DNA of 45,317 nt from Bacteroidota bacterium. Its GTDB lineage: Bacteria; Bacteroidota; Bacteroidia; AKYH767-A; OLB10. Location of the stretch: contig JAYVOC010000258.1 in NCBI GenBank assembly GCA_043758125.1, positions 1 to 45,317 of the forward strand. The letters run 5' to 3'. The position numbers were made by a program, and so were the translations under genes. Shown one piece after another: positions 4,199 through 41,856 of the stretch. Under the pieces are notes generated by a model that was given only the letters and a program-made list of their open reading frames with translations, searched no databases and was not told the origin of the DNA. Each line of letters begins with the position of its first letter. The first letter of the stretch is position 1.

Positions 4199-4834
4199 AT
4201 GCCAAACTCCTCTTTAGCTATTTCTCACTTTTGTAGAATTAAGAACAATACAATTTCTAAAGATTCTCAACTTCTTTTAAACTCGAAAGCCTCTCTTTTT
4301 CAGCAGTTTTCGGATGAAGCGTATCGCTTTTGCAAGGTAAATTATCCAAAATTTCACAAAATGGATAATCTCTCAAAATTGGCCTTTCTCAGCTCAGAAT
4401 TTTTACTTCAAGAGTTTCCGATATCTAAAAATTATAATTCTTATAGAATTGGTGTTATTCTTTCGAATAAAAGTGCGAGTTTAGATACAGATCATAAATA
4501 CTTTAACATGGTTAAAAAGGGAGTAGCCAGTCCCGCTGTTTTCGTATATTCGCTGCCTAGTATCATGCTTGGGGAAATTTGTATTAGAAACGGAATAAAA
4601 GGCGAGAATACTTTTTTTATTTCAGATACTTATGCTATTCAAGAACAGGTAGATTATATCAACAATCTTTTCACCTCAAATGTATTCGATGTTTGCATTG
4701 GTGGTTGGGTTGAATTGATTGAAGAAACGTATGAATCTTTCTTATTTCTTGTCGAAATATCAACAAATAATTCCAATCTAGCTTTTACTTCAGAAAACAT
4801 AAAAAAAATATATCAAGATTCAATAAATGGATGA
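4199..4834 (+). CDS. Short KS-like / chain-length-factor protein (non-catalytic KS partner)
   Basis: KFHKMDNLSKLAFL and SPAVFVYSLPSIMLGEICIR are KS N-terminal-domain motifs. No Cys/His/His catalytic triad. 211 aa. Confidence 0.8.
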   Translation: MPNSSLAISHFCRIKNNTISKDSQLLLNSKASLFQQFSDEAYRFCKVNYPKFHKMDNLSKLAFLSSEFLLQEFPISKNYNSYRIGVILSNKSASLDTDHKYFNMVKKGVASPAVFVYSLPSIMLGEICIRNGIKGENTFFISDTYAIQEQVDYINNLFTSNVFDVCIGGWVELIEETYESFLFLVEISTNNSNLAFTSENIKKIYQDSING

Positions 4835-5081
4835 TTTAAAAGTGCTTCTTAAAAAACAAATTGTTGAACAATTAAATCTTAAGGAAATTAAACCCGAAGA
4901 TATTGGCGATGATCAACAATTGTTTGTTGAAGGTTTAGGCTTAGATTCAATAGATGTTCTCGAGTTAATAGTTTTACTTCAACAAGAATATGGAATTAAA
5001 TTAGCGAATGCCGAGGAAGGTCCGAAAATTTTTCAATCAATTAACACAATTGCTGCTTTTATCGAGGCGAATAGGAAATAA
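4827..5081 (+). CDS. Acyl carrier protein (ACP1)
   Basis: 84 aa, acidic, GLGLDSID phosphopantetheine site. Confidence 0.95.
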   Translation: MDDLKVLLKKQIVEQLNLKEIKPEDIGDDQQLFVEGLGLDSIDVLELIVLLQQEYGIKLANAEEGPKIFQSINTIAAFIEANRK

Positions 5082-5086: not shown

Positions 5087-6286
5087 ATGAGTAAACCCGT
5101 TTATATTACTGGCCTTGGACTTATTTCAGCGATAGGAAACAATGTTTCGGAATCTTTACGTGCATTCGAACATCACGTGTCAGGTGTTGCCTCTGTTAAA
5201 TATCTTCCAACACGATACAGTGATAAATTTCCGCTTGCTGAAGTAAAACTAAGCAATGAAGAACTCGCATTAAAAACAGGTCTCTCTCCTACTCTCAGCC
5301 GCACTATTTTGTTAAGTTTAATTGCAGCTAAAGAAGCCCTTGAACCTTTTCCAATAAAACAATTACAAGAATATAAGCTCGGTTTTATCTCTGCAAATAC
5401 GGTTGGTGGAATGGATAAATCCGAAAATTTTTTCATCGATTATTTGCAAGATAATCAAAAGGGAAATCTACACGATATTATTAATCACGATTGTGGTAAG
5501 CCAACAGATTTCGTTGCAAAAGAACTAGGCTTAAAAGGATTTATAACAACCATTAGCACCGCATGTTCTTCCTCAGCAAATGCAATTATGCTTGGTAGCA
5601 GAATGATAAAAGCTGGGAAATTAGATATTGTTATTGCGGGTGGTGTTGATTCGTTAACGCGATTTACATTGAATGGATTTAATTCATTGATGATAGTGGA
5701 TGATCAACAATGTAGACCACTAGATCAAACACGCAAAGGTTTGAACTTAGGTGAAGGTGCAGCCTATGTTGTTTTGATGAATGAAAAAATAGCTAAAGCA
5801 TTTTCAGCTACTATTTTTTGTGAGTTAACTGGTTATTGTAACACGAATGATTCACATCATCAAACTGCACTTTCTGATGATGGAAATGGTCCATATCTCG
5901 CAATGCAAGGAGCATTAAAAATGAGTAAACTTACAGCATCCGATATTGATTATATCAACATGCATGGAACAGGAACTCAAAACAATGATGCTGCTGAAGG
6001 GAAAGCTGTAGAAAGAATTTTTCATCCAAATTATCCGAAATTAAGCTCTACAAAATCATTCACAGGACATACATTGGGAGCCTCTGGAGCTGTTGAAGCA
6101 GTATTCTCAAGTTTAGCAATTAAAGAAGGATTAATTTATCCAAACTTTAACTTTACCGAGGCTATAAATAATTTACATTTTAGTCCTGAAACAAAATATC
6201 AAAAAGGTTTATCACTTCATCATATCCTCTCCAATTCATTTGGGTTTGGTGGTAATTGTACTTCACTCATTTTTTCAAAAGTTTAA
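5087..6286 (+). CDS. Beta-ketoacyl-ACP synthase (KAS II/type II PKS KS), elongation module 1
   Basis: TACSSS, HGTGT, KSFTGHTLGA, NSFGFGG. Confidence 0.95.
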   Translation: MSKPVYITGLGLISAIGNNVSESLRAFEHHVSGVASVKYLPTRYSDKFPLAEVKLSNEELALKTGLSPTLSRTILLSLIAAKEALEPFPIKQLQEYKLGFISANTVGGMDKSENFFIDYLQDNQKGNLHDIINHDCGKPTDFVAKELGLKGFITTISTACSSSANAIMLGSRMIKAGKLDIVIAGGVDSLTRFTLNGFNSLMIVDDQQCRPLDQTRKGLNLGEGAAYVVLMNEKIAKAFSATIFCELTGYCNTNDSHHQTALSDDGNGPYLAMQGALKMSKLTASDIDYINMHGTGTQNNDAAEGKAVERIFHPNYPKLSSTKSFTGHTLGASGAVEAVFSSLAIKEGLIYPNFNFTEAINNLHFSPETKYQKGLSLHHILSNSFGFGGNCTSLIFSKV

Positions 6287-6288
6287 TC

Positions 6289-7338
6289 ATGAGTATTTAC
6301 ATCAACGGGATCGGAAATATATCAGCGCAAAATACGTTTGATAATAGCATTTTAAAAAACGGTATAGAAAAATTATCAGGCAACCGCTATTGCTGCATTG
6401 AACCCGACTACACTCAATTTATTGATGGAAAACAAATCAGGAGAATGAGTCGTGTAATAAAAATGGGTGTTGCATCATCAACACTCGCAATGCGTGATGC
6501 CGGATTAGAAAGTCCACAAGCAATCATTGTTGGAACTTCTTTGGGATGTATGGAAGACACTTATTCATTTCTTTCAAAGATGGTTCAGTACAAAGAAGAA
6601 ATGTTAAGTCCAACGGCGTTTATTCACTCCACGCACAATTCGATTGCAGCACAAATTGCACTATTATTTCAATGCAAAGTGTACAACAGTACCTATGTTC
6701 ATCGCAATATTTCTTTTGAGTCAGCATTACTTGATGCCATGTTACTTTTAGAAGAAGGTAGTATTGACAATGCATTGATTGGTGGTATTGATGAAATTAC
6801 AAATACCAGCTTTGCAATCATGAATCGATTGGGTCATTTTAAAGATTCAGAAAAAGTAAATCAAGAAAATTTTTATTTTCCTGGGAAAGGTTCTGTTGCT
6901 GGAGAAGGTTCTGCATTTTTTGCTTTGGCGGCAAAACAATCAACAAATTCGTATGCCAAAATTCTATCAACACAAACATTATCATTTTGTGATCCAAATG
7001 AAATTACTGAAGCAGCGAAATCAATGTTATCCGAAAACGGAATTGACAAATTAGATTTATTACTTCAAGGAAATAATGGAGATATCGGCGATGATATTAT
7101 TTTTAATGAATTTGCAGAATCAATTCAAATGAGTAAGTGTAAATTAAATTTTAAACATCTCTGTGGCGAGTATGCAACCGCTTCTGCATTTGGAATGTCG
7201 ATAGCAGCTCAATTGTTGAGAAATGAGAATACAGCAGAAAAATTTGGATATGTGTTAACAGAAAAACCAAATTCGATTTTAATTCACAATCAATCGAATG
7301 GAATTCATCACTCGTTAACATTACTGACAGCATGTTAA
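6289..7338 (+). CDS. KS-like chain length factor (Cys-less), module 1
   Basis: KS fold motifs RRMSR, SPTAFIHSTHN, GEGS, KHLCGEY. The catalytic Cys region reads NISFESAL. Start set at ATG 6289, 2 nt after the KS stop. Confidence 0.85.
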   Translation: MSIYINGIGNISAQNTFDNSILKNGIEKLSGNRYCCIEPDYTQFIDGKQIRRMSRVIKMGVASSTLAMRDAGLESPQAIIVGTSLGCMEDTYSFLSKMVQYKEEMLSPTAFIHSTHNSIAAQIALLFQCKVYNSTYVHRNISFESALLDAMLLLEEGSIDNALIGGIDEITNTSFAIMNRLGHFKDSEKVNQENFYFPGKGSVAGEGSAFFALAAKQSTNSYAKILSTQTLSFCDPNEITEAAKSMLSENGIDKLDLLLQGNNGDIGDDIIFNEFAESIQMSKCKLNFKHLCGEYATASAFGMSIAAQLLRNENTAEKFGYVLTEKPNSILIHNQSNGIHHSLTLLTAC

Positions 7339-24556: not shown

Positions 24557-25783
24557 ATGAAGAGAGTTGTTATCACAGGCATTGGAATTTATTCTTGCAT
24601 TGGTCATAATATTGAGGAAGTAAGAAACTCACTTTATACTGGCAAATCAGGGATTGTACTCGATCTTGAGCGTAAAGATTTTGGTTATCGATCAGGTTTA
24701 ACAGGATCTGTACCGAGACCTTATTTAAAAGAATTACTCGACAGAAGAGCTCGAATAATGCTTCCTGAGCAAGGTGAATTTGCATACATGGCTACTCTAG
24801 AAGCCTTAAAAATGGCGGGACTCGATTTAGATTTTCTTGATAATAACGAAGTAGGAATCATTTATGGAAATGATAGTTCAGCAAAACCTGTGATGGAAGC
24901 TGTTGATATTATTCGATTAAAAAAAGATACTTTATTGGTTGGATCAGGATCGGTTTTTCAAACTATGAATTCAACAGTAACGATGAATCTCTCTACTATT
25001 TTTAAGTTGAAAGGTATCAATTATACGATTAGTGCAGCTTGCGCGAGTGGTTCGCATGCCATTGGAACAGGTTATCATTTTATACGCACTGGCTTGCAAG
25101 ACATGATCGTTTGCGGAGGTGCCCAAGAGGTAAATATTTATTCTATGGGGAATTTTGATGCACTTTCAGCATTCTCAATTCGTGAACATGAACCTACAAA
25201 AGCTTCTCGACCTTTTGATCGTGATCGAGATGGATTGGTTCCGAGCGGAGGTGCAGCAACAGTGATTTTAGAAAGCTTGGATTCTGCTCTTGCAAGAGGT
25301 GCAAATATTCTCGGCGAAGTGATTGGTTATGGCTTTTCATCTAATGGAGGTCATATTTCTAATCCTACCGTTGATGGTCCTGCAAAAGCGATCACTATGT
25401 CGTTAAAAGACTCTGGAATTAAAGCTTCCGATGTAGATTATATTAATGCACATGCTACTTCAACTCCTGTGGGAGATGCGAAAGAAGCTAAAGCAATCGA
25501 TTCCGTTTTTGGTGAATCTCGACCACCAGTAAGTTCAACAAAATCAATGACCGGTCACGAGTGTTGGATGTCGGGAGCCAGTGAAATAGTTTATTCAATT
25601 TTGATGATGAGAGATGGTTTTATCGCTCCAAATATTAACTTTGAAAATCCTGATGAGGATTCAGCAAAACTAAATATCGCCGATAAAACGATCGATAAAA
25701 ATATAGACATCTTCCTTTCCAACTCTTTTGGATTTGGCGGAACGAATTCATCATTGATAATAAAAAAAAGTATCAATAAGTAA
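24557..25783 (+). CDS. Beta-ketoacyl-ACP synthase (FabB/F-like)
   Basis: AACASG, HATST, KSMTGHECW, NSFGFGG. Confidence 0.95.
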   Translation: MKRVVITGIGIYSCIGHNIEEVRNSLYTGKSGIVLDLERKDFGYRSGLTGSVPRPYLKELLDRRARIMLPEQGEFAYMATLEALKMAGLDLDFLDNNEVGIIYGNDSSAKPVMEAVDIIRLKKDTLLVGSGSVFQTMNSTVTMNLSTIFKLKGINYTISAACASGSHAIGTGYHFIRTGLQDMIVCGGAQEVNIYSMGNFDALSAFSIREHEPTKASRPFDRDRDGLVPSGGAATVILESLDSALARGANILGEVIGYGFSSNGGHISNPTVDGPAKAITMSLKDSGIKASDVDYINAHATSTPVGDAKEAKAIDSVFGESRPPVSSTKSMTGHECWMSGASEIVYSILMMRDGFIAPNINFENPDEDSAKLNIADKTIDKNIDIFLSNSFGFGGTNSSLIIKKSINK

Positions 25784-28441: not shown

Positions 28442-29593
28442 ATGCAAAACGTTTTTGTTGAATCGAGTAACATTATTTCCGCACTTGGAAATTCCACATC
28501 AGAAAATTTTCAAAACATAATGTTGGGAAAATCAGGAATACAACAGCATTTAAATCCTCAAATAAATGATGAACCATTTTGGGCTTCGTTGCTTGATAAG
28601 CAACAACTTAATATATTCGAAAGTGAAATTTTAAATTCAGCGCAATATACTCGATACGAAAAAATTATAATTGCCTCTATAAGTGATGCACAAAAACTTT
28701 CGTTGGTAGATTTTTCTAGTAAGGAAACAATTTTTATATTTTCCACAACAAAAGGTAATATTTCTTTACTTGAAGAAAATAAAACTTTACCAGAATTATA
28801 TGCACGTTTAAGTTTGATGCACTCTGCAAAAATCATTTGCTCCTTGTTTAAAAATGAAAATGAACCCATCGTAATTTCTAATGCATGTATTTCGGGAGTG
28901 GTAGCATTACTCTATGCAAGAAGAATTTTAGCATCAGGAAAATATAAAAATGCTATTGTAATTGGAGCAGATACGATCAGTAAATTTGTCTTTTCAGGTT
29001 TCTTATCGTTTCAAGCGTTGAGTAAAAAGATTTGTCAACCATTTTCGTTAAACAGAGATGGAATTAACCTTGGCGAAGCCGCTGCTACTGTCGTATTAAC
29101 AACAAAAAATACAGTGGAGGCAAATCCTATCCAAATTTTAAATGGAGCCGTAACAAATGATTCCAATCACATTTCTGGACCATCACGAACCGGAGAAGAA
29201 CTAAGTTGTGCTATAAATAATTCTCTGCTTTTATCATCACTAAAGCCAGATGATATAGGATTTATTTCTGCACATGGAACAGGAACTTTATTTAACGACG
29301 AAATGGAAGCGAAGGCTTTTAGTTTATCAGGATTAGTCGATACTCCAGTAAATAGTTTAAAAGGATATTTCGGACATACACTTGGAGCAGCAGGAATAGT
29401 AGAATCGATTATTTGTTTTTTATCATTACAAAATAACACTATCATTCCTACTTTAGGATTTACAGAAATTGGTGTAACACCACCAATAAATATTTGCAAT
29501 ACCATCACAAAAAAAGAATTAAATTACTGTTTAAAATCCGCTTCTGGTTTTGGTGGTTGTAATGCAACATTAATTTTCTCCTCAAAGAATTAA
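28442..29593 (+). CDS. Beta-ketoacyl-ACP synthase (probable starter-extending KS)
   Basis: SNACISG, HGTGT, KGYFGHTLGA, SGFGG. Confidence 0.92.
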   Translation: MQNVFVESSNIISALGNSTSENFQNIMLGKSGIQQHLNPQINDEPFWASLLDKQQLNIFESEILNSAQYTRYEKIIIASISDAQKLSLVDFSSKETIFIFSTTKGNISLLEENKTLPELYARLSLMHSAKIICSLFKNENEPIVISNACISGVVALLYARRILASGKYKNAIVIGADTISKFVFSGFLSFQALSKKICQPFSLNRDGINLGEAAATVVLTTKNTVEANPIQILNGAVTNDSNHISGPSRTGEELSCAINNSLLLSSLKPDDIGFISAHGTGTLFNDEMEAKAFSLSGLVDTPVNSLKGYFGHTLGAAGIVESIICFLSLQNNTIIPTLGFTEIGVTPPINICNTITKKELNYCLKSASGFGGCNATLIFSSKN

Positions 29594-29602: not shown

Positions 29603-31204
29603 ATGAAAAATTTATACTCTTCTGAACTTAAAAATTCACATTATGATGCCATCATCATTGGATCAGGAATGGGCGGACTTACAACGGCTGTTTTGCTGGC
29701 TAAGGCTGGAAAGAAAGTTCTAGTTCTTGAAAAGCATTATGTGATTGGCGGATTTACACATACCTTCAAGCGTAAAAATTTCGTTTGGGATGTGGGTGTT
29801 CATTACGTTGGTCAAGTAAATTTAACAGAATCATTATTAAAAAAAGCGTTCGATTATGTTTCAGAAGGAAAATTAAAGTGGGCGGAGATGGGTGATGTTT
29901 ACGATCAAACCATTATTGAAGGTGTAACTTATAATTTCAAAAAAGGATACGATAATCAAGTAGCACAAATGATTGATTATTTTCCAAATGACGAAAATGC
30001 AATTCGCGAATATTATAAATTATTAAAAAGTATTGCAGGAAGATCGATAATGTTTTTCTCTGAAAAGACAATGCCAAATTGGTTGAGCAAATCAGTAGGC
30101 TATTTTTTAAGAAAAGGATTTTATAAATATTCCAATCAAACAACCTACGAAGTATTAAGTGCATTAACAACTAATGAAAAACTGATAGCAGTACTTTGTG
30201 CGCAATGTGGCAACTATGGTTTACCTCCTAAAAAAAGCAGTTTCGCACTTCATGCAATGATCGTTGAACATTTTTTAGAAGGTGGAAATTATCCTGTTGG
30301 AGGCGCTTCTAGTATTCATAAAAGCTTGTCGAATGTTATTGAGAATAATCATGGAAAGATTGCAATTAAAGCAACTGTAAAAAATATTATTCTGGAAAAG
30401 AATATGGCTATCGGTGTAGAAATGGAAAATGGCGATAAAATTTACGGTAAAAAAATTATCAGTAATGCAGGCGCATCCAATACCTTTAACCACCTCATCG
30501 TTGATGAAAATAAAAAATTTGAAAACACAAATGAGCTAAATAAAATTGATCCTTCTGTTGCACATGTATGTTTATATGTGGGATTAAATGCATCCGATAA
30601 AGAATTAAATTTACCAAAACACAATATTTGGCATTACGACACTTATAAATTAGATGATAAATTTGATCATCATTTAACGGATAAAAAATATGCTTCTTTA
30701 CTATCTTATTTTTCATTTCCATCCGCAAAAGATCCTGAGTGGCAAAAAAATCATCCCGATAAAGCTACCATACAAGTTGTAGATTCTTGTCGTTATAGTC
30801 ATGTAGCAAAATGGGCCGACAAACCATGGCAAAAGCGAGGTGAAGATTATGAGTTGGTAAAGCAAGAAATTCAAAATTCATTGCTAGAAAAACTTTACGA
30901 AGTTTTACCTCAAGTAAAAGGAAGAGTTGAAGTTTGTGAATTATCGACGCCACTTTCAACAGCACATTTTAGCAATTATACGCATGGCGAAATTTATGGC
31001 TTAGAACATTCACCTCAACGCTTTCACCTTAAACAATTACGTCCACGCACCAATTACAAAAACTTGTACCTAACCGGTCAAGATGTAGTTTGTGTTGGTG
31101 TTGGTGCAGCATTATTTTCGGGAATTATAACTGCTGTTTCAATTTTAAACCGAAATTTGCTTTGGAAAATAATTCGATTCAAAGCTCTTGAATCTGCTGA
31201 ATGA
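29603..31204 (+). CDS. CrtI/retinol-saturase-like FAD oxidoreductase 2
   Basis: GSGMGG, IGG, WDVGVHYVG, YPVGGAS, FPSAKDP, STPLS, GEIYGL, LYLTGQD. Confidence 0.88.
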   Translation: MKNLYSSELKNSHYDAIIIGSGMGGLTTAVLLAKAGKKVLVLEKHYVIGGFTHTFKRKNFVWDVGVHYVGQVNLTESLLKKAFDYVSEGKLKWAEMGDVYDQTIIEGVTYNFKKGYDNQVAQMIDYFPNDENAIREYYKLLKSIAGRSIMFFSEKTMPNWLSKSVGYFLRKGFYKYSNQTTYEVLSALTTNEKLIAVLCAQCGNYGLPPKKSSFALHAMIVEHFLEGGNYPVGGASSIHKSLSNVIENNHGKIAIKATVKNIILEKNMAIGVEMENGDKIYGKKIISNAGASNTFNHLIVDENKKFENTNELNKIDPSVAHVCLYVGLNASDKELNLPKHNIWHYDTYKLDDKFDHHLTDKKYASLLSYFSFPSAKDPEWQKNHPDKATIQVVDSCRYSHVAKWADKPWQKRGEDYELVKQEIQNSLLEKLYEVLPQVKGRVEVCELSTPLSTAHFSNYTHGEIYGLEHSPQRFHLKQLRPRTNYKNLYLTGQDVVCVGVGAALFSGIITAVSILNRNLLWKIIRFKALESAE

Positions 31205-32136
31205 AAAACGCTATGAAAAATATACTTGTCATCTATTTTACACAATCAGGCCAATTGAACAAAGCAGTAAAAGCTACGTTACAAAACCTAGAAAACGATG
31301 CTGACGTTAACATTCAATACGAGCAAATACAACCACAAAAAGCATTTCCTTTTCCATGGACTTACATGCAATTTTTTGATGCTTTTCCAGAAACGGTGCA
31401 AGGAGTTCCATGTCCACTTTTACCATTTTCATTTGATCCTGATGCACATTTTGACCTAATCATTATCGCATATCAGCCTTGGTTTTTATCTATAAGTCAA
31501 CCGATAAATTCTTTTTTACAAACTATTGAGGCTAAAAAATTACTAAGAAATAAACCAGTAATTACCATTTTAGCTTGTCGTAATATGTGGTTAAATGCAC
31601 AAGAAAAGATGAAAATGCATTTAAAAAAGTTAGGTGCTAACTTAGTTGGCAACATCACTTTCGTAGATAAATCAGCTAATTTGGTGAGTTTAGTAACTGT
31701 TTTCGCGTTTGCCTTAGGAGGTATTCAGGATAAGTTTTTGGGCATTTTTCCGAAATATGGTGTGTCTGACGATGATTTGAAAGCAAATGCCGGGAAATTT
31801 GGAGCCATAATTCAATCTCACTTAAAAAGTGGGGAATACGTTGGACAGCAAGAGGAACTTATTGTAAGCGGAGCAATAAACATTAAATCGAATTTAATGT
31901 TACTAGAAGGCAGAGGAAAAGTATTGTTTCCACTTTATGCCAATTATATCTCTAAGAAAGGAACCGCCAATAGTAATGAACGCAGGTCAAGAGTTAGGAT
32001 TTTTGGTATTGTTTTACCAACAGCAATTTTAATACTCTCCCCTATTATCACCATTTTATCACGCTTGGCACCAGTAATTTTCCCGAAAAAAATTAGAGGA
32101 GAAATTAATTATTTCTCAAATAATACTTTACGATAA
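31201..32136 (+). CDS. darA: Dialkylresorcinol biosynthesis protein DarA (flavodoxin-like)
   Basis: ILVIYFTQSGQL, FPFPW, FPETV, YQPWFLS, CRNMW; upstream of a DarB-type KAS III. Alternative start at 31213. Confidence 0.88.
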   Translation: MKNAMKNILVIYFTQSGQLNKAVKATLQNLENDADVNIQYEQIQPQKAFPFPWTYMQFFDAFPETVQGVPCPLLPFSFDPDAHFDLIIIAYQPWFLSISQPINSFLQTIEAKKLLRNKPVITILACRNMWLNAQEKMKMHLKKLGANLVGNITFVDKSANLVSLVTVFAFALGGIQDKFLGIFPKYGVSDDDLKANAGKFGAIIQSHLKSGEYVGQQEELIVSGAINIKSNLMLLEGRGKVLFPLYANYISKKGTANSNERRSRVRIFGIVLPTAILILSPIITILSRLAPVIFPKKIRGEINYFSNNTLR

Positions 32137-32210
32137 TTTATTAATAAATTTTCAAATAAATAGTGCTAATCGAAGATCATGTTTAGCAGACAATTATACC
32201 CTATTTTTAA

Positions 32211-32218
32211 TATCTTTG
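32211..32218 (+). promoter_or_regulatory. -7 element (TATCTTTG) upstream of darB
   Basis: Exact TAnnTTTG in the 210-nt darA-darB gap. The -33 element is not clear. Confidence 0.5.
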
Positions 32219-32346
32219 TCCTATTCTTCAATATGTGAAAATTGGAGTAAAATAATTATATTTATGCCTAATGGTGTCTCGATTTTATCGAGGTTTATAT
32301 TCCCAACGCATTATTCATTCTATTAACTACCAAAATAATTATACAA

Positions 32347-33498
32347 TTGTCGTCAAATAATAATTCAGTTTACATAAATAAAATTGCAAAGTTTCTTCCT
32401 GGCGAAGTTGTTCTCAATGATGAAATGGAACAGTTTCTTGGATATGTTGGTGGTGATTTAAAATCAAAATCAAAACCATTAATTTTAAGAAACAATAAAA
32501 TTACAAAACGGTATTATGCTTTAGATAAACATGGCAAAAGTACTTATAGCAATACCGAGCTAACCATTGAAGCAATTAAAGGTTTAGTAAGTGAAGATTT
32601 TCAGCTCGATAAAATTGAACTTTTAACATGTGGAACAACAACTCCTGATCAAATATTACCAGCACATGCTACAATGGTTCATGGTGAATTAAAAGGTCAT
32701 TCAATCGAAGCCATCACTTTTGCAGGATCCTGTTGTGCAGGAATGAATGCATTAAAATATGCGTATATGTCGGTGCTAACTGGGAATACAAAAAACGCAA
32801 TTACTACGGGTTCAGAAAAATTTTCTCAATGGATGATAGCAAATAATTTTTCGGAAGAAGCAGAAAAAATTAAGCTGATAGAAGAAAGACCAATTTTAGG
32901 ATTTGAAAAAGATTTTCTACGTTGGATGTTATCAGATGGTGCTGCTGCAGTTTTACTTAGTAACACACCAAGTAAAGTAGGATTAAATTTAAAAATTGAG
33001 TGGATTGAAATAAGTTCTTATGCAAATGAATTAGAGACCTGCATGTACTCAGGTGGTGAGAAAAATGAAGATGGTAGCATAAAAGGATGGGCTACATTCG
33101 AACAAAAAGAATGGTTAGAAAAATCATTGTTCTCTTTACGACAAGATACCAAATTATTAGATAACAATATTGCTCGACTAGGAACGATATCTTACATTGC
33201 AGCATTTAAAAAACACAATGTTGATCCTTTAACTGTCGATTGGTTTTTACCACATATTTCCTCTGAATATTTTCGTTCGAAAGTGGATGATGAAATGAAA
33301 TCAACAGGTATTCAACTAGCACAAGAAAAATGGTTTGTGAACCTTTCTCAAATTGGAAATATTGGATCTGCTTCTATATTTCTTGCACTAGAAGAATTGA
33401 TAAACTCTGGAAAACTTATTAAAGGTCAAAAGATAGTTATAACAGTTCCTGAAAGTGCGCGATTCTCCTTCGCAAATGCATTACTTACCGTTTGCTAA
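32347..33498 (+). CDS. darB: DarB/StlD-type KAS III (cyclohexanedione/dialkylresorcinol-forming condensing enzyme)
   Basis: ILRNNKITKRYYA, GSCCAGM, FLRWMLSDGA, LPHISS, GNIGSAS, VPESARF; TTG start. Confidence 0.9.
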   Translation: MSSNNNSVYINKIAKFLPGEVVLNDEMEQFLGYVGGDLKSKSKPLILRNNKITKRYYALDKHGKSTYSNTELTIEAIKGLVSEDFQLDKIELLTCGTTTPDQILPAHATMVHGELKGHSIEAITFAGSCCAGMNALKYAYMSVLTGNTKNAITTGSEKFSQWMIANNFSEEAEKIKLIEERPILGFEKDFLRWMLSDGAAAVLLSNTPSKVGLNLKIEWIEISSYANELETCMYSGGEKNEDGSIKGWATFEQKEWLEKSLFSLRQDTKLLDNNIARLGTISYIAAFKKHNVDPLTVDWFLPHISSEYFRSKVDDEMKSTGIQLAQEKWFVNLSQIGNIGSASIFLALEELINSGKLIKGQKIVITVPESARFSFANALLTVC

Positions 33499-33555
33499 AT
33501 AAAAGATTCAAATAACTATTTGTGGAAACATGACCATTTTCCCAGCAACTTAAAA

Positions 33556-33966
33556 ATGGAAAAAGACAAAGTACCACAACAAGATAGCAACATACTCGAA
33601 GGCAAAGTAAAGATGCTGAAGTATGCCGTTGATGAAAATGGCAATTATACAAAAGTTCCAAGTGCTGGTTGGGAACCAGAAACAATTGTACTCTCATTAG
33701 CATGGGATGAAATACATGAAAAGATTGATGCAGTAAGAAAACGTGTTTTGGCGAATGAAATAAGTCCTATTGCATATTTTATGGAAAAAGAAATGCTAGA
33801 CATACCTTTACTTTCTCAATATGTTGGTTATTTTTCTTTTCAAGTAAAGCGTCATTTGAAACCACGAATTTTCAAAAAGTTATCAGAAAAGCAATTAGAA
33901 AAATACGCAAAAGCATTTCAAATAACAAAAGAACAACTTCTAGATATCTCACTCGATAATAAATAA
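33556..33966 (+). CDS. Hypothetical cytoplasmic protein with possible C-terminal HTH
   Basis: ATG 33556 (MEKDKVPQ..), KYAVDENGNY, SAGWE, QVKRHLKP..F..L....LEKYA..F. Confidence 0.75.
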   Translation: MEKDKVPQQDSNILEGKVKMLKYAVDENGNYTKVPSAGWEPETIVLSLAWDEIHEKIDAVRKRVLANEISPIAYFMEKEMLDIPLLSQYVGYFSFQVKRHLKPRIFKKLSEKQLEKYAKAFQITKEQLLDISLDNK

Positions 33967-34020
33967 ATTTCTCCATCCAAATATTAAAATTTATAATTTA
34001 AATTTTTAATTCTTAAAGAT

Positions 34021-35022
34021 TTGCAAATTAATTTCGAACATAATCAGTCAGCACATTGTGAAAGTGGAACAGCATCCAATCTGCTTCGCTATCACGGATT
34101 AATATTAAGTGAGCCAATGATCTTTGGAATTGGATCTGGATTATTTTTCGGACATTTTCCATTCTTAAAAGTTAATGGAATTCCAGGAACTACATATAGA
34201 ATTTTCCCTGGTCTAATTTTTAGCAGAACATGCAAACGATTAGGTATTAAAATGAAAAAGCAAACGTTTCGCAGTGAAACAAAAGCGATGGAAGAATTGG
34301 ATCGTATTTTAGAAAAGGGAATGCCTGTAGGACTTCTTACAAGTGTTTATTACCTTCCCTATTTGCCCGCAGCACTTAGATTTCATTTCAATGCCCACAA
34401 CATCGTTGTGTACGGAAAAAAAGATGGAAAATATTTAGTGAGTGATCCAGTAATGGAAACGGTAACTGAAATTGCACCAGAAGATTTACAACGCGCTAGA
34501 TTTGCTAAAGGTGCCTTAGCTCCAAATGGCAAAATGTATTACCCCATATTTGTTCCTAAAGAAATTAATTTAAAACGATCAATTGTTGCTGGAATACGAA
34601 GAACTGCAGTGGACATGACCGCTATTCCTGTACCACTCATTGGTGTAAGAGGAATACGTTTTCTTGCAAAAAAAATAGCAGGCTATCCCAAAAAATTATC
34701 GGAAAGAAAATCATCACTTTACTTAGGTAATATTGTTCGAATGCAAGAAGAAATTGGAACTGGTGGTGCTGGCTTTCGTTTTATATATGCCGCATTTTTA
34801 CAAGAGTCATCATCAATATTAAAGCAAGATTGGTTGATGGACATTTCAAAAGAAGTTACAGAAACAGGTGATAAATGGAGAGACTTTGCTTATGATGCGG
34901 CAAGAATTTGTAAAGACCGCGCTACATCAGGTGAGAGTTATGAAAAGCTATCTTCTATGATGTTGGATTGTGCTGACCGTGAAGAAAATATTTTTACTAA
35001 GCTCAAAAAAATTACTTTGTGA
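34021..35022 (+). CDS. BtrH-like protein (papain/C39-like N-terminal domain)
   Basis: HCESG (Cys), FNAHNIVVYG (His), VSDP (Asp); C-terminal EEIGTGGAGFR..YAAFLQE; TTG start. Confidence 0.82.
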   Translation: MQINFEHNQSAHCESGTASNLLRYHGLILSEPMIFGIGSGLFFGHFPFLKVNGIPGTTYRIFPGLIFSRTCKRLGIKMKKQTFRSETKAMEELDRILEKGMPVGLLTSVYYLPYLPAALRFHFNAHNIVVYGKKDGKYLVSDPVMETVTEIAPEDLQRARFAKGALAPNGKMYYPIFVPKEINLKRSIVAGIRRTAVDMTAIPVPLIGVRGIRFLAKKIAGYPKKLSERKSSLYLGNIVRMQEEIGTGGAGFRFIYAAFLQESSSILKQDWLMDISKEVTETGDKWRDFAYDAARICKDRATSGESYEKLSSMMLDCADREENIFTKLKKITL

Positions 35023-35771: not shown

Positions 35772-37048
35772 TGTTACGTCTTTTTGCTACCATAAAAAAA
35801 GAATTACTCATCCTCTTGCGTGACAGAAGTGGATTAGCAATCTTATTTTTAATGCCAATGGCTTTGGTAACAATCATGGCGTTAATTCAAGATGCACCAT
35901 TTAGAGATTACCAAGAATTACGAATACCTGTACTTGTTATCAACAACGACAAAGGTGATTTAGGAAAAAAAATTATTGATGGACTTACGGATTCAAAAGT
36001 TTTTCAAGTAACCATCTTTAAAGGATCAGAAATTGAAGCGAAAAAAAAAGTAGCTAAAAGTGATTCTGAAATCGGCATTTCCATTCCAAAAAATGCTACT
36101 GAACAATTAAATTTACGAATACAGAAATTTGTCACCAACACATTAACCGAAGTTGGTATTGTTGATACCCGTATTGCAAAACAAATATCACCAACTAAGG
36201 ACTCCACAATTTCTGTTTATTTTGCGCCCAATATTAAAAAATCATTTCGCAATTCTGTACTTAGTTCCATCAAGCAAGTATCATCAAAACTTGAAACACA
36301 AAGTATGCTTGATAATTTTAAGAATGCATTGAATCAAGATGAAGAGAATACTTCAAATAACAATCAAGCAATAGGTGATTTCATTAATTTTAAGGAAGAA
36401 GCAGTTATTGAAAATCAATATGCTGTTCTTGAATTAAATTCCGTTCAACACAATGTTCCTGCTTGGACAATGTTTGGAATGTTTTTCATTGTGATTACGC
36501 TTTCAGGTAGCATCATTAAAGAACGAGAAGATGGAAGTTATCTTCGTATTAAAACTATGCCTGGCTCCTACTTCACTGTGATGGCTGGAAAAATTTTTAC
36601 ATTTTTACTAGTATGCCTTACGCAATGTTTTTTAATGTTGTTAGTGGGCATCTATCTATTACCACATTTAGGATTACCTCAACTAATAATTGGATCAAGT
36701 ATAACAGCTATTACAATTGTGGCAATAAGTAGTGGATTAGCCGCAACTGGTTATGGTGTTTTAGTAGGCACAATATTTAGCACTCACCAACAATCTTCAA
36801 CATTTGGTGCTGTTTCTGTGGTGATACTAGCTGCCTTAGGAGGTATTTGGGTGCCTGTATATGTAATGCCCGATACAATAAAATTATTAGCTGAATTTTC
36901 TCCATTATTTTGGGGATTATCTGCATTTCAAAATATTTTTCTTAGTCATGGTGATGTATTAAGTGTGCAAATTTATATTTACAAATTACTATTATTTTTT
37001 GGTTGTTGTATTGGAATTTCCTACTTAATAAATAAAGTTCGACAATAA
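35771..37048 (+). CDS. ABC-2 type transporter permease
   Basis: KKELLILLRD, one TM plus large periplasmic loop plus multiple TMs, KEREDG, LGGIWVP. Confidence 0.92.
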   Translation: MLRLFATIKKELLILLRDRSGLAILFLMPMALVTIMALIQDAPFRDYQELRIPVLVINNDKGDLGKKIIDGLTDSKVFQVTIFKGSEIEAKKKVAKSDSEIGISIPKNATEQLNLRIQKFVTNTLTEVGIVDTRIAKQISPTKDSTISVYFAPNIKKSFRNSVLSSIKQVSSKLETQSMLDNFKNALNQDEENTSNNNQAIGDFINFKEEAVIENQYAVLELNSVQHNVPAWTMFGMFFIVITLSGSIIKEREDGSYLRIKTMPGSYFTVMAGKIFTFLLVCLTQCFLMLLVGIYLLPHLGLPQLIIGSSITAITIVAISSGLAATGYGVLVGTIFSTHQQSSTFGAVSVVILAALGGIWVPVYVMPDTIKLLAEFSPLFWGLSAFQNIFLSHGDVLSVQIYIYKLLLFFGCCIGISYLINKVRQ

Positions 37049-37104
37049 TAAATAATCTTTTAAGGATTTATAGTTAAAATAAAAATCATTAACATTATAA
37101 AAAA

Positions 37105-37785
37105 TTGAATCATAAATTTTACTACACATCATTTCTATCATTAGGTATAACTTTTCTATATCTGCTATTTTGCTCGTGTAATTTTTCAAAAAAAACATGT
37201 TTGAAATATTTAAACAAATCAAAAAATGAAAGTTTTGATATGGTAATCGTTCCAGGTGTTCCATTACTTAATGGGAAATGGGATTATACGATGAAAGGAA
37301 GAATTCTTTGGTCGAAATATTTGTATGATGCAGGAATAGCAAAAAACATTATGTACTCTGGTTCAGCAGTATATTCTCCTTACTATGAAGGAGAAGTTAT
37401 GGCACTTTATGCGGAAGCACTAGGAATACCTAAAGAACATATCTATACAGAAACTAAAGCAGAACATAGTACAGAAAATATTTATTATTCTTACAAGAAA
37501 GCAAAGCAATTAAATTTCGACAAGATAGCATTAGCTTCTGATCCGTTTCAAACTAAATTACTAAGCAGATTCGCGAGAAAAAAAGTTAGTGCTGATATAC
37601 GTTTATTACCAATGGTTGTTGATTCACTAAAAGAAATGAATACTGTTAAAATAGATCCACAAATAAATTATCAAAAAGCTTTCGTTACGGATTTTAAATC
37701 ACTTCCAGAACGACAAGGATTTTGGAAAAGGTTACGAGGAACACGTGGACTAAATATTGATATAAATGCTTATTCAACAAAATAA
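37105..37785 (+). CDS. YdcF/ElyC (DUF218) family protein, probable lipoprotein
   Basis: VIVPG, YSGS, EGEVM, ETKAEHSTEN; LLFCSC lipobox-like; TTG start uncertain. Confidence 0.8.
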   Translation: MNHKFYYTSFLSLGITFLYLLFCSCNFSKKTCLKYLNKSKNESFDMVIVPGVPLLNGKWDYTMKGRILWSKYLYDAGIAKNIMYSGSAVYSPYYEGEVMALYAEALGIPKEHIYTETKAEHSTENIYYSYKKAKQLNFDKIALASDPFQTKLLSRFARKKVSADIRLLPMVVDSLKEMNTVKIDPQINYQKAFVTDFKSLPERQGFWKRLRGTRGLNIDINAYSTK

Positions 37786-37884
37786 AAAGCTTGTAAAGTG
37801 GGAATAGAAACCACAGATTCAACTTCTTATTTTATTACTATATCAGGAAATGGTAAATAATAATTAATCGTTTCTTATAAACAG

Positions 37885-37892
37885 TATATTTG
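37885..37892 (+). promoter_or_regulatory. -7 element (TATATTTG) upstream of the methyltransferase
   Basis: Exact TAnnTTTG(C) 18 nt before ATG 37911. Confidence 0.55.
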
Positions 37893-37910
37893 CTTCACAA
37901 TAATATAAAA

Positions 37911-38981
37911 ATGGATTTTTTTAAAAAAGATACGAGGACAGCACTTCAAGCAAAAGAATATGCCCAGTGGATTGCTTTTGCACCAATGGTTTTTCAGGCT
38001 TCTAGAGCATTACGTAATCTGAATATTTTATCAGAAGTTCATGAATCCCGTAAAGTTGGAGTTACCATTGAAGAAATTTGCAAGAAATTAGATCTCTCAA
38101 ATTATGGAGCACGAGTTCTTATGGAAGCTGGATTAGGAATTGGATTGTTATTAGTTAATGATAATAAATTCACGTTAACAAAAGCAGGATACTTAATATT
38201 AAACGACCCACTCACAAAAGTAAATTTTGATTTCTCTAACGATGTATGCTATGAAGGGTTATTTTCACTGACTGAATCTATTAAATCAGGAAAGCCTGAA
38301 GGATTAAAAGTATTTGGCACTTGGAAAACTGTTTACGATGCGCTGGCTCACCTTCAACCCAATGTACAAAAATCGTGGTTCGCTTTTGATCACTATTATT
38401 CAGATGATTCCTTTCCAGAAGTTTTAGAATATATTTACAAATCAAAACCAAAAACACTTTTAGATATCGGTGGAAACACAGGCAAATGGGCGATCTCAAG
38501 TGTTAATTTCGACAAGGATGTTCATGTAACTATTATGGACTTACCAGGTCAAGCGGAAATGGCGAAAAAGAATATTGAGAAATTAGGTTTATCAGATAGA
38601 GTATCTTTTTATCAAACGAATATATTAGATGAATCAATTCCATTTCCAAAATATTATGATGTAATATGGATGAGCCAATTTTTAGATTGCTTCTCTGATA
38701 ATGAAATAATTTCCATTCTTACTAGATGCAAAAACTCCTTAAATGATGATGGTGCAGTTTATATCTTAGAACCATTTTGGGATAATCAACGATTTGAAGC
38801 TGCTGCGTTTAGTTTACAAATGACATCCATCTATTTTACAGCAATCGCAAATGGAAATAGTCAAATGTATAACTCAACAATATTTATAAAACTTATAGAG
38901 AAGTCAGGGTTCGTAGTTGATGAAACGATTAATGATATTGGCATTTCAAATACATTAATTAAATGTGTCAAAAAAAATTAA
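37911..38981 (+). CDS. Class I SAM-dependent methyltransferase (O-MT family 2 architecture; probable aryl-ring methylase)
   Basis: N-terminal dimerisation/wHTH-like part; LLDIGGNTG, MDLP, WMSQFLDCF; start at ATG 37911. Confidence 0.88.
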   Translation: MDFFKKDTRTALQAKEYAQWIAFAPMVFQASRALRNLNILSEVHESRKVGVTIEEICKKLDLSNYGARVLMEAGLGIGLLLVNDNKFTLTKAGYLILNDPLTKVNFDFSNDVCYEGLFSLTESIKSGKPEGLKVFGTWKTVYDALAHLQPNVQKSWFAFDHYYSDDSFPEVLEYIYKSKPKTLLDIGGNTGKWAISSVNFDKDVHVTIMDLPGQAEMAKKNIEKLGLSDRVSFYQTNILDESIPFPKYYDVIWMSQFLDCFSDNEIISILTRCKNSLNDDGAVYILEPFWDNQRFEAAAFSLQMTSIYFTAIANGNSQMYNSTIFIKLIEKSGFVVDETINDIGISNTLIKCVKKN

Positions 38982-39059
38982 GTAAATTGAGATAGTAATT
39001 ATCAATTATATAGTTATTACCGTAAAATTTATCTTTAAATTATTAGAAAAAAAATCACC

Positions 39060-39314
39060 ATGGATGAAATAATTGAAAAATTAAAAAATGAAATTATTGA
39101 GCAACTAAATCTGGTAGATATAAAGAAGGAAGATATCACAGCAGATACGCCACTCTTTGGCGAAGGTCTTGGCTTAGACTCCATAGATTCATTAGAGCTT
39201 ATTGTACTACTCGACAGAAAATATCAAATTAAAATAACAAATCCTCAAGAAGGAAAGAAAGTTTTTCAATCGCTAAGAACAATGGCGGAATATATTCAAG
39301 AGCATAAGAAATAA
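39060..39314 (+). CDS. Acyl carrier protein (ACP3), paralog of ACP1
   Basis: GLGLDSID; 48/84 positions identical to ACP1 by ungapped hand alignment. Confidence 0.95.
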   Translation: MDEIIEKLKNEIIEQLNLVDIKKEDITADTPLFGEGLGLDSIDSLELIVLLDRKYQIKITNPQEGKKVFQSLRTMAEYIQEHKK

Positions 39315-39328
39315 CCGCTTAATTTATT

Positions 39329-40531
39329 ATGAGCAAAAATATTTATGTAACTGGACTAGGAATGATTTCAGCAATAGGAATCAATATTGATGAATCATTG
39401 CAATCTATTAAACAATTAAAATCGGGAATAGGTAAATTAAATCATGTTGCATCGCGTCATAAAGAAATTATTTCAGTTGGTGAAGTGAAATTTTCAAATA
39501 TTGATTTACAAAACATTGCAGGTCTTTCTTCTCAATTTAATTTTACGCGTACAGCACTCTTGGGAATAATTGCTGCTAAGGAGGCGATAAACTCAGCAAA
39601 CATTACCGATATTAATTTGTTTAAGACAGGAATTATATCAGCTACAAGTGTTGGAGGAATGGCAGTAGCAGAAAACCATTATTTAGACTGCTTAAACATT
39701 GAAAAAAGTACTGATTTTCTCAAACATATAAATACATTAGATTGTAGTGATAGCACCGAAAGAATTGCAGATGCATTAGGCATTACGGAATTTTTATCAA
39801 CTATCAGCACTGCGTGTTCATCATCAGCAAATGCGATCATGTTAGGAGCACGGCTTATAAAGCATGGCATACTAGATCGTGTTGTTGTTGGCGGCACAGA
39901 TTCGCTTTCACGATTTACAATAAATGGCTTCTTAACATTGAAAATATTAGATGAAACTCCATGCAGACCATTTGATGCCAATCGCAATGGATTAAACCTT
40001 GGAGAAGGAGCAGGATTCATCGTTTTGGAATCAGAAAAAGCAGCACAAGGAAAAAAGATTTTAGCACAACTAACTGGATATGCTAATTCAAATGATGCCT
40101 ATCATCAAACAACTTCATCACCAAATGGAGAGGGAGCATTTATCGCGATGAAAAAATCATTAGAAATGAGTGGACTTAGCATTTCAAATATCGATTACAT
40201 CAATGCACATGGAACGGGAACTGAGTTAAACGATTTATCTGAAGGCATGGCTATCGAAAGATTATTTGGAAACACTGTACCGCCCATTAGTTCAACGAAA
40301 GCATTCACGGGTCACACATTGGCAGCAGCGGGAGGAATAGAAGCCGTATTATCAATACTTGCAATTCAAAATAATTTTATTTATCCGAATTTATTTTTTA
40401 AAAATGAAATGCCAGAACTACACTTCAAACCAGAAACAAATCTCATCAATACCAAGAAAATAAATCATGTGCTTTCCAATTCATTTGGATTTGGTGGAAA
40501 TACTTCATCATTAATCTTCTCGAGAAATTAA
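39329..40531 (+). CDS. Beta-ketoacyl-ACP synthase, elongation module 2 (paralog of 5087..6286)
   Basis: TISTACSSSANAIMLG identical to module 1; HGTGT, KAFTGHTL, NSFGFGG. Confidence 0.95.
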   Translation: MSKNIYVTGLGMISAIGINIDESLQSIKQLKSGIGKLNHVASRHKEIISVGEVKFSNIDLQNIAGLSSQFNFTRTALLGIIAAKEAINSANITDINLFKTGIISATSVGGMAVAENHYLDCLNIEKSTDFLKHINTLDCSDSTERIADALGITEFLSTISTACSSSANAIMLGARLIKHGILDRVVVGGTDSLSRFTINGFLTLKILDETPCRPFDANRNGLNLGEGAGFIVLESEKAAQGKKILAQLTGYANSNDAYHQTTSSPNGEGAFIAMKKSLEMSGLSISNIDYINAHGTGTELNDLSEGMAIERLFGNTVPPISSTKAFTGHTLAAAGGIEAVLSILAIQNNFIYPNLFFKNEMPELHFKPETNLINTKKINHVLSNSFGFGGNTSSLIFSRN

Positions 40532-40532
40532 A

Positions 40533-41597
40533 ATGCAAGCATTCATTAAAGGAGTTGGACTTATTTCTCCTCAACACTCCATAAACTTCCATGATTTCAT
40601 TTCTGAAACTGTTACTTCAGAAAATAATTTATTGAAATGCATTGAACCTTCCTATTCGGAATTTTTAAACCCCATTATGTCGCGTAGAATGGGAAGAATT
40701 GTTAAGATGGGAATGGCAGCTGCATTAACAAGTTTAAACGATGCAAATATAAAAATGCCCGATGCAATTATTACAGGTACTGCATTAGGTTGTTTGGGTG
40801 ATACCGAAAAATTTTTAACAGCAATGATTACTGACGAAGAATTATACCTCACTCCTATTCCCTTTATACAATCGATTCAAAATACAGTAGGTGCACAAAT
40901 TGCATTGCATTTAAAATGTATGAATCATAATTTTACACATTCGCATAAAGGATTTTCTTTTGAAAGTGCGGCATTGGAAGCATTAATGCTTTTAGATGAT
41001 GGTGAAGCTAATAATGTTTTAATAGGTGGATTAGATGAGATGACTACTAACAATTTCTTGTTGTTCAATCGAATTAATCGTTGGAAAAAGGAATTCGTGC
41101 TCAACACTAATTTATTAAATGCAAAAACAGAAGGAACTATTGCCGGTGAAGGTGCCGCATTCTTTGTGTTTAGCAAGAAAGAAAATGAAAACAATTATGC
41201 TATTGTTAAAGGTCTGAGAATAATATACAAGCCAGAAAATGATAATATTGTTTTTGATAAAATTCAAGAACTATTAAACGAAAATAATCTTACAAATAAT
41301 GAAATTGATTTAGTGATTTATGGCCTCAATGGCGACGTACGTTATGATGCGATTCACTACACATTAATAGATTCTCTTTTCCAAAATAGCACCTCTGCTT
41401 ATTTCAAACATTTGTGTGGTGAATATCAAACTTCTAGTGGCTTTGCAATGTGGTTGGCGGCGATGATTTTAAAAAATCAACAAATTCCAAATTTAATTAT
41501 CATTAATAATAAAAATCATAAATCGATTGCAAATATTCTAATTTACAATAATTATGAATCAGAAAATCAATCTGCAATCTTGATGTCAAAGATTTAA
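40533..41597 (+). CDS. KS-like chain length factor (Cys-less), module 2 (paralog of 6289..7338)
   Basis: RRMGRIVKMG, PIPFIQSIQN, GFSFESA, AGEGA, KHLCGEY. Confidence 0.87.
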   Translation: MQAFIKGVGLISPQHSINFHDFISETVTSENNLLKCIEPSYSEFLNPIMSRRMGRIVKMGMAAALTSLNDANIKMPDAIITGTALGCLGDTEKFLTAMITDEELYLTPIPFIQSIQNTVGAQIALHLKCMNHNFTHSHKGFSFESAALEALMLLDDGEANNVLIGGLDEMTTNNFLLFNRINRWKKEFVLNTNLLNAKTEGTIAGEGAAFFVFSKKENENNYAIVKGLRIIYKPENDNIVFDKIQELLNENNLTNNEIDLVIYGLNGDVRYDAIHYTLIDSLFQNSTSAYFKHLCGEYQTSSGFAMWLAAMILKNQQIPNLIIINNKNHKSIANILIYNNYESENQSAILMSKI

Positions 41598-41624
41598 TGT
41601 TCAAGTGATTTAATTTGGGATATT

Positions 41625-41676
41625 TGATCTTATAGCAAAATAACTTCAATTTTATATTTCCTTTGAAATAAGATCA
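41625..41676 (+). other. Stem-loop downstream of the last cluster gene
   Basis: TGATCTTAT (41625-41633) and ATAAGATCA (41668-41676) form a perfect 9-bp inverted repeat with extra inner CAAA/TTTG pairing. AT-rich, with a large loop. Confidence 0.35.
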
Positions 41677-41856
41677 GACATTATTTTTTCGTGGCTAAAA
41701 GGCTAATTAGAGCAATATTATCCTTTCAATTCTCAAACCAATAATCCCAATTAAAATTATTTCAGCCTAAAGTTCATTTTAAACGAAATTCACTAATTTT
41801 ACGCTTCAAATTATCCTTTTACAAATAATTACAATTAATTATCGAATATCCTATCT

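Follow-up and report, generated by a model that had tools for sequence, protein, structure and literature searches.

The window analyzed here is one whole contig of 45,317 nucleotides (C258; JAYVOC010000258.1) from a metagenome-assembled genome of a Bacteroidota bacterium (G000; GCA_043758125.1) that is 89% complete. It carries a flexirubin-type aryl-polyene cluster with two sets of genes for an acyl carrier protein (ACP), a ketosynthase (KS), and a chain-length factor (CLF): module 1 at 4827-7338 and module 2 at 39060-41597. Module 2 occupies the slot that ends the dialkylresorcinol (dar) block, and its place in the gene trees argues that it was acquired separately from module 1. The best explanation of the whole, to which we give a probability of roughly 0.55, is that module 2 is a xenologous polyene-type set sitting in the dar slot and acting as the second elongating pair of a single flexirubin-type pathway. 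Two modules in one cluster are ordinary; what is new is that the cluster is a mosaic whose dar slot holds a pair of the polyene type.

Comparison of the two modules

The two triplets share their gene order and have nearly equal protein lengths (84 and 84 amino acids for the ACPs, 399 and 400 for the KSs, and 349 and 354 for the CLFs, with CLF1 counted from the ATG at 6289), which bears out the repeat that an earlier model-made reading of the letters (the sequence-only reading) had described. In both, Pfam finds PP-binding and the N- and C-terminal ketoacyl-synt domains, and the match of the CLF-like protein is limited to the N-terminal one. Pairwise BLASTP gives 48/84 identical residues for the ACPs (57%, E = 2e-31), the same count as had been made by hand, 203/401 for the KSs (51%, E = 3e-140), and 120/339 for the CLFs (35%, E = 1e-74), so the similarity of the triplets is far above chance.

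As had been claimed, the catalytic triads and the carrier serines are intact: KS1 and KS2 both have the Cys of ACSSS and the His residues of HGTGT and GHTL, and both ACPs keep GLDSID, the motif of the phosphopantetheine-attachment Ser. The two CLFs lack the Cys and both His, the Cys column being occupied by Asn in CLF1 and by Gly in CLF2. The alignments also contain both motif differences that had been pointed out, DSIDV versus DSIDS in the ACPs and PTAFIHSTHN versus PIPFIQSIQN in the CLFs. In alignments with FabF, the QSIQN/STHN stretch falls at about FabF residues 137-141. QSIQN is found in every module-2 CLF, and STHN stands at that motif in the other main-type CLFs compared, including the sisters from genus g47. 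The module-1 CLFs have IHSTHN in common, and their former Cys position is mostly Asn (Ala in G050).

The repeat is not an assembly repeat, since the DNA of the two modules aligns in only two patches (770 and 320 nt) at 66-67% identity and the longest exact word they share is 14 nt; here too the sequence-only reading was right. The order of the contig is borne out by independent assemblies of two congeneric species. Both (G002 and G003) have the order ABC-2 permease, DUF218 gene, O-methyltransferase, ACP2, KS2, CLF2, S1/P1 nuclease, and in G002 the end of contig C67 and the start of contig C3 lie within one gene (unk278), a bridge that connects the two modules as they are ordered in the window. 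The shared synteny, this bridge, and the DNA divergence together rule out a repeat or a chimeric contig.

Both modules are under purifying selection: between G000 and G002, all six module genes have dN/dS of 0.04-0.17 and none has a stop. Module 2 is intact in three genera belonging to two families. The KS identities to G151 and G050 are 71% and 68% for KS1 and 70% and 64% for KS2; the module-1 and module-2 clades have diverged in step over three genera, with both modules retained. Relative to G002, synonymous divergence reaches 0.62-0.99 in the region of module 1 (4827-8102) and 0.35-0.48 in that of module 2 and the methyltransferase (37890-41597), a contrast that may reflect different histories or recombination within the genus.

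Ancestry of module 2

Synteny and trees separate two KS-CLF lineages, which we call main and dar-linked. The main lineage usually stands in the context unk211-ACP-KS-CLF-deacetylase-LolA, unk211 being a conserved 211-amino-acid gene. The dar-linked lineage is deeply separate, with support of 99/98 in the KS tree (18 rows) and 100 in the CLF tree. The careful KS tree has 65 rows, with 18 near-duplicate rows left out, and the CLF tree has 80; a quick tree of 69 rows gives the same picture as the careful KS tree, and the CLF tree agrees with it.

In both trees KS2 and CLF2 fall in the main clade and not in the dar-linked lineage. The module-2 clade comprises the KS2/CLF2 proteins of G000, G002, G003, G151, and G050 (support 99/95 for the four KS rows used). 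It is sister to the sole KS-CLF of genus g47 (100/99) and branches among main modules that are followed by a deacetylase. KS1 groups elsewhere, in a clade with the copies of G151 and G050 and with that on contig C2 of G028, a genome from the same taxonomic order (100/94). One further genome, G194, resembles module 2 by identity only; it is unpublished and was kept out of all trees.

Two constrained topologies were compared by the approximately unbiased (AU) test. Placing module 2 with the dar-linked clade costs 112.7 log-likelihood units (P = 0.00028), and membership of KS2 in the dar-linked KS lineage was rejected. Joining modules 1 and 2 in one clade costs 258.6 units (P = 0.0005), which speaks against in-lineage or tandem duplication and decides for the second acquisition that the sequence-only reading had offered as an alternative to old paralogy. 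By ancestry, both modules would be polyene elongators.

The dar slot

The usual dar block runs DarA-position gene, DarB, DarG, DarH, ABC ATPase, ABC permease, ACP, KS, CLF. A scan of species genomes in which seven dar-linked CLFs served as queries yielded 299 confirmed relatives, of which the best 80 were kept; this survey covers dar-linked modules only. These best 80 of 299 are mostly Chitinophagaceae, among them the isolates Agriterribacter humi, Terrimonas spp., and Danxiaibacter flavus, together with metagenome-assembled Flavobacteriales. ABC permease-ACP-KS-CLF is present in 60/80 loci, the whole block from DarB through DarG, DarH, and both ABC genes to ACP-KS-CLF in 50/80, and a second, main-type CLF within the 21 kb examined in 10/80. 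Of the remaining 20 loci, several border on the end of a contig, and in six, each with 5 kb or more of DNA upstream, the CLF stands by itself. Only one of these six was viewed in detail: in Terrimonas rubra (L144:10004-11032), an orphan dar-type CLF without KS or ACP adjoins a Na/H exchanger and a bestrophin gene. Four loci (L152, L173, L197, and L207) are annotated with no ACP beside the main pair, the sole ACP lying in the dar block, a hint that a single carrier can serve both pairs.

In G151 and G050 the ABC-2 permease is directly followed by the module-2 orthologs. A DUF218 gene and a methyltransferase are inserted between the ABC permease and ACP2 in the window, G002, and G003, that is, in this genus only; in G151 and G050 neither is at that position, and the methyltransferase lies elsewhere. 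The O-methyltransferase does precede ACP2 in the window, as had been noted, but because its adjacency is genus-specific, the suggestion that the two modules serve methylated and unmethylated starters lacks comparative support.

The sequence-only reading also gave module 2 a possible promoter of its own. The proposed sequence, TATCTTTA, is present at about 39030. A sigma-70 scan, which does not model Bacteroidota promoters, returned 28 sites against 28.4 expected from shuffled sequences and so lends the promoter no weight; the same scan found no terminator between the methyltransferase and ACP2. Among the RNA data sets listed, none contains 37000-41700 of the window.

A mosaic cluster

Trees of DarB and of the ABC-2 permease each resolve two clades, both at support 100, corresponding to blocks with and without a dar-linked module. 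The window, G151, and G050 fall in the clade without one, as sister to G048 of genus g47 (100), and the other members of that clade (G085, G314, G123, G103, and G048) have no KS-CLF in the slot. The window's DarB is 67% identical to that of G048 and 46% to that on contig C6 of G028, and its ABC permease 54% and 32%. The reverse holds for the exporter fusion (43% to G048, 54% to G028:C2) and FAD oxidase 1 (51% and 67%). The exporter, oxidase, KS3, ketoreductase (KR), and lyase genes are all nearer to G028 than to G048. The cluster is therefore a mosaic, with DarB, the permease, and module 2 siding with g47 and the exporter, oxidase, KS3, KR, lyase, and module 1 with G028. We found neither a dar-linked CLF nor a third CLF in the window's genome, at its 89% completeness.

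The halves [lyase...CLF2] and [unk211-ACP1...halogenase] stand in opposite order in the window and in G151:C65 and G050:C2 (L073-L078), so that the modules are 34 kb apart in the window and 5 kb apart in G151 and G050. G002 has the window's order, with some 2.1 kb of additional DNA separating the halogenase from the lyase. The 2.2-kb gap between CLF2 and unk211 in G151:C65 (L227:248-1888) holds an open reading frame of 547 amino acids that matches no Pfam or NCBIfam family and may mark the recombination joint.

Frequency of second modules

We surveyed copy number by searches with CLF2 and then CLF1 in 31 relatives (G000 included) and a class sample of 401 Bacteroidia genomes. Eight of the relatives carry a CLF, and all eight have two. 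In the class sample 77/401 genomes match CLF2 at E = 1e-5 or better; after removal of G265 (E = 1e-6) and G099 (where the match is a short part of a 577-amino-acid frame), 75 carriers remain. Counted by hand, 25 of these 75 have two CLF-type genes (24/74 without the unpublished G194), second matches having been dropped in G068, G109, G144, and G357 (short stretches in frames of 281-615 amino acids) and in G197 (a contig-end fragment). Single-module clusters are found in most of g47 and all of g31.

Both copies could be placed for nine dual genomes (G014, G416, G028, G041, G087, G365, G344, G369, and G390), and in 9/9 one is dar-linked and the other main. Outside this placement are ten genomes of family f17, the second copy of G413, and the unresolved copies of G353. 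With second sets in 25/75 class carriers and 8/8 carriers among the relatives, and in Azoarcus BH72 as well (PMC3949708, from the part available), two modules are largely routine, and the view that their presence sets the window's cluster apart is not supported. In genome annotation, an extra ACP-KS-CLF found in a flexirubin cluster is nothing unusual and should be assigned to the dar block.

Proposed role and alternatives

We propose that module 2 is the ACP-KS-CLF set ending the dar sub-cluster of a flexirubin-type aryl-polyene pathway, and most likely, as its lineage suggests, the second polyene-elongating pair. In many Bacteroidia the slot usually holds a dar-linked KS-CLF; in this genus and in g27 and g96 it holds an ordinary polyene-type KS-CLF-ACP. 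Module 1 would be the resident set, in front of the deacetylase-LolA-exporter genes. Module 2 would be a xenolog, the main module of a foreign cluster, that arrived along with the dar block of that cluster and took the place of the dar-linked pair. The incoming set is most closely related to the sole main module of g47 and to that genus's dar genes. Each KS presumably pairs with the adjacent CLF and uses the adjacent ACP, and both modules would extend a chain derived from 4-coumarate, an aryl-polyenoyl chain. The two pairs would probably divide the work by chain-length stage or raise throughput, as ApeR and ApeO-ApeC complement each other. One flexirubin-type pigment family would be made and not a molecule with two polyene chains; for the dual-chain product put forward by the sequence-only reading we see no evidence.

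Several points weigh against this proposal. The groups in both AU tests were chosen with the tree already in view, the outgroups have long branches, and in the careful KS tree KS3 branches within the main clade. The direction of transfer is inferred from parsimony of gene position rather than a rooted species tree. Since single-module clusters (most of g47, all of g31) suffice, the need for a second polyene pair is not obvious. The tight linkage between slot and dar genes could mean that the job of the slot concerns the resorcinol and not the polyene, and the Azoarcus darC/J/K link consists of printed gene order and annotation only, in the part of PMC3949708 available.

The linkage is the basis of an alternative that we regard as unlikely, in which module 2, irrespective of its ancestry, performs the function of the dar slot: it builds or holds medium-chain beta-ketoacyl- or 2-enoyl-ACP for condensation by DarB and so sets the alkyl chains of the resorcinol and not the polyene. 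ACP-KS-CLF directly follows darB...ABC permease in those 60 of the best 80 loci and, in Table 1 of PMC3949708, in Azoarcus, where an ACP named DarC belongs to the dar loci. However, module 2 is of the polyene-type lineage, and its sister proteins are the sole KS-CLF of their clusters. The five members of its own dar-block clade named above have no KS-CLF in the slot, so that type of dar block works without one, and darB and darA alone yield the resorcinol in Escherichia coli (PMC3992019, from the part available).

It is unlikely, in our estimate, that module 2 is a redundant passenger of the recombination that built the mosaic, giving extra throughput at most. The two modules are of the same type, one module is enough elsewhere, and in vitro ApeO-ApeC alone gives the full polyene, a second KS only lifting throughput (PMC8358021, as far as its available text goes). 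Yet module 2 has stayed intact in three genera and two families with dN/dS of 0.05-0.17 and no stops, and all module-2 CLFs share the derived change from QSTHN to QSIQN in an otherwise conserved motif. We consider it very unlikely that each pair, with its own ACP, makes a different polyene length or uses a different starter, giving two pigment series or a switch between them. The separate ACPs and the low CLF identity (35%) would fit, as would the difference at about FabF 137-141, near the residues that end the ApeO-ApeC cavity (PMC8358021, in part); but the cluster has one starter pathway, with one tyrosine ammonia-lyase and one AMP-ligase, and neither a separate promoter nor a terminator was detected in the sigma-70 scan, which is not modeled on Bacteroidota.

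As an extension of the elongating-pair proposal, and a rather doubtful one, the stability of the polyene-type replacement in three genera could mean that the two kinds of pair are functionally interchangeable. The widespread DarJ/DarK-type pair would then also act on the aryl-polyene chain, and long flexirubin polyenes would arise by relay, the two KS-CLF pairs differing at the end of the cavity (QSTHN in one, QSIQN or the dar-type motif in the other).

Contents of the cluster

The flexirubin-type cluster spans about 4199-41597, with every gene on the + strand (Table 1). Its starter and chain genes, from Pfam, are a tyrosine/histidine ammonia-lyase, an AMP-ligase, a KR, FabA/FabZ-like dehydratases, and a thioesterase. 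Further genes encode LolA, a LolB2-like protein, a glycosyltransferase, a fusion of an MMPL-type exporter with an acyltransferase and a methyltransferase, a halogenase, a phosphopantetheinyl transferase (PPTase), DarB with its companions, and an ABC transporter. Four ketosynthases in the whole cluster look active, and there are three ACPs.

Table 1. Features of the flexirubin-type cluster in the window
Feature	Position	Strand	Evidence and remarks
unk211, conserved 211-amino-acid gene	4199..4834	+	Precedes main ACP-KS-CLF set; family unassigned (no Pfam or NCBIfam match)
ACP1, module 1 carrier protein	4827..5081	+	PP-binding, E = 1.6e-9; GLDSID; dN/dS 0.04 vs. G002
KS1, module 1 ketosynthase (main slot)	5087..6286	+	ketoacyl-synt N and C; Cys/His/His; dN/dS 0.09
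CLF1, catalytically dead KS-like partner	6289..7338	+	N-terminal KS domain only; no Cys/His/His; dN/dS 0.11-0.13
LolB2_flexi match	8702-9331	+	NCBIfam
MMPL-type exporter, acyltransferase, and SAM methyltransferase fusion	10890-14741	+	1283 amino acids
PPTase gene	17926-18303	+	Pfam
KS3, FabB/FabF-like	24557..25783	+	Adjoins KR and ACP3; outside repeated triplet
KS4	28442..29593	+	After thioesterase; outside repeated triplet
First gene of dar block, darA position	31201..32136	+	No family model matched (0 Pfam/NCBIfam families)
DarB, dialkylresorcinol-forming KAS III	32347..33498	+	NCBIfam resorcinol_DarB, 566 bits (cut-off 550)
DarG-family protein	33520..33966	+	DarG_fam, 163 bits (cut-off 70); flexirubin_DarG, 168.5 bits, just below cut-off 170
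DarH, BtrH-related acyltransferase	34021..35022	+	DarH_acyl, 487 bits (cut-off 300); Pfam BtrH_N and DUF4872
ABC ATPase, dar block	35019-35771	+	Pfam
ABC-2 permease, dar block	35771-37048	+	Pfam
DUF218 gene	37105-37785	+	Pfam
FlxJ-family O-methyltransferase	37890-38981	+	FlxJ model, 524.6 bits, below cut-off 560
ACP2, module 2 carrier protein, darC position	39060..39314	+	PP-binding, E = 1.4e-8; GLDSID; dN/dS 0.05-0.06
KS2, module 2 ketosynthase, darJ position	39329..40531	+	Cys/His/His; dN/dS 0.10-0.17
CLF2, dead KS-like partner of KS2, darK position	40533..41597	+	dN/dS 0.14; 0.34 on very short G000-G003 branch

CLF1 is followed by the deacetylase and LolA, the same arrangement as in single-module clusters, and a homolog of unk211 lies directly upstream of the main module in G151, G050, G028, G048, G153, and G062. 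The first gene of the dar block likewise has a homolog that is always upstream of DarB in related loci, and by position it would correspond to Azoarcus darA in Table 1 of PMC3949708, the part of that source on which the comparison draws. DarB is the sole such gene in the genome (89% complete).

Curated NCBIfam flexirubin or dar models (LolB2_flexi, DarG, DarH, and the FlxJ methyltransferase) match at 8702-9331, 33520-35022, and 37890-38981. NCBIfam offers no such model for the two KS-CLF pairs, nor for the genes at 4199-4834 and 31201-32136. The 1283-amino-acid fusion is kept in G151, G050, G028, and G048. A tryptophan-halogenase-like flavoenzyme is encoded within the cluster at 20613-21884, which suggests that the pigment is a chlorinated one of flexirubin type.

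Relation to known systems

One of the closest known counterparts is ApeO-ApeC of Acinetobacter baumannii (PDB 7F28), the KS/chain-length factor of an aryl-polyene cluster and a precedent for complementary ketosynthases in aryl-polyene synthesis (PMC8358021, in the part available). The window's pairs resemble it in having an active FabF-like KS next to a short KS-like partner without catalytic residues, discrete ACPs, and a setting of KR, dehydratase, thioesterase, LolA, exporter, and glycosyltransferase genes. KS2 matches chain B of that structure (7f28_B, E = 1.2e-48), and a CLF profile (A3) matches ApeC (7f28_A, E = 5.3e-6); CLF2 alone has one weak match in PDB and does not reach ApeC at E = 0.01. 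The ApeO-ApeC cavity ends at ApeO His138 and ApeC Glu142 (PMC8358021, same part), to which the QSTHN motif corresponds by position only. Unlike ApeC, whose solved chain has 204 amino acids, the window's CLFs have about 350, and the window differs from the ApeO-ApeC cluster in its two pairs and its attached dialkylresorcinol block.

Azoarcus BH72, which makes the aryl-polyene/dialkylresorcinol arcuflavin, has arcK/arcJ in a polyene locus separate from darC/darJ/darK, and Table 1 of PMC3949708 prints the dar locus as darA-darB-darD-darE-darF-(darG,darH)-darI-darC-darJ-darK. The gene order at 31201-41597 is alike (DarA-position gene, DarB, small conserved protein, BtrH-like protein, ABC ATPase, permease, ACP, KS, and one protein after it), as is the separate KS with an 'N-terminal KS domain' partner in the polyene locus. 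That table annotates darE as BtrH-like, darC as an ACP, darJ as a ketosynthase, and darK as hypothetical; in the part of the paper available, darJ and darK are named there only and their function is untested. Azoarcus BH72 differs in being a proteobacterium with split loci, and the window in having the DUF218 gene and methyltransferase before the ACP and, as compared with the printed order and not by sequence, a KS-CLF of the polyene and not the dar-linked lineage.

The Chitinophaga pinensis flx cluster (flxA-flxY) and the Flavobacterium johnsoniae flexirubin cluster (PMC3992019, as far as available) share with the window a tyrosine ammonia-lyase, a CoA ligase, several beta-ketoacyl synthases (FlxC, I, L, N, and O), a deacetylase, LolA, a glycosyltransferase, an exporter, and darA/darB. 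Module 1 precedes the deacetylase as FlxN/FlxO precede FlxP, if the order of FlxN/FlxO follows that of their letters (PMC3992019). A search of full-text literature returned no paper on the role of a second KS-CLF in flexirubin clusters, though subscription papers may discuss one, and none on the DarG/DarH naming.

A more distant parallel is the CLF profile's weak match to 1tqy_A (E = 0.0068), from the structure of the actinorhodin KS-alpha/KS-beta (PDB 1TQY). In actinomycete type II polyketide synthases, KS-alpha and KS-beta form a heterodimer of an active KS and a dead partner that shapes the cavity, and KS-beta has Gln at the Cys position. The window's CLFs have Asn or Gly in that column, and the products here are reduced polyenes, unlike the aromatic polyketides of those systems.

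Significance

Flexirubin and aryl-polyene clusters are among the commonest biosynthetic clusters in Gram-negative bacteria. The literature that we searched holds no test of the role of the dar-attached KS-CLF pair (darJ/darK in Azoarcus). The window presents a natural swap: a polyene-type pair occupies the dar slot and has been maintained by selection in three genera. Clusters of this kind offer a convenient test bed for the role of the second pair and for how chain-length factors set polyene length. If the pairs are interchangeable and act in relay, this would give a general chain-length rule for a very common pigment family.

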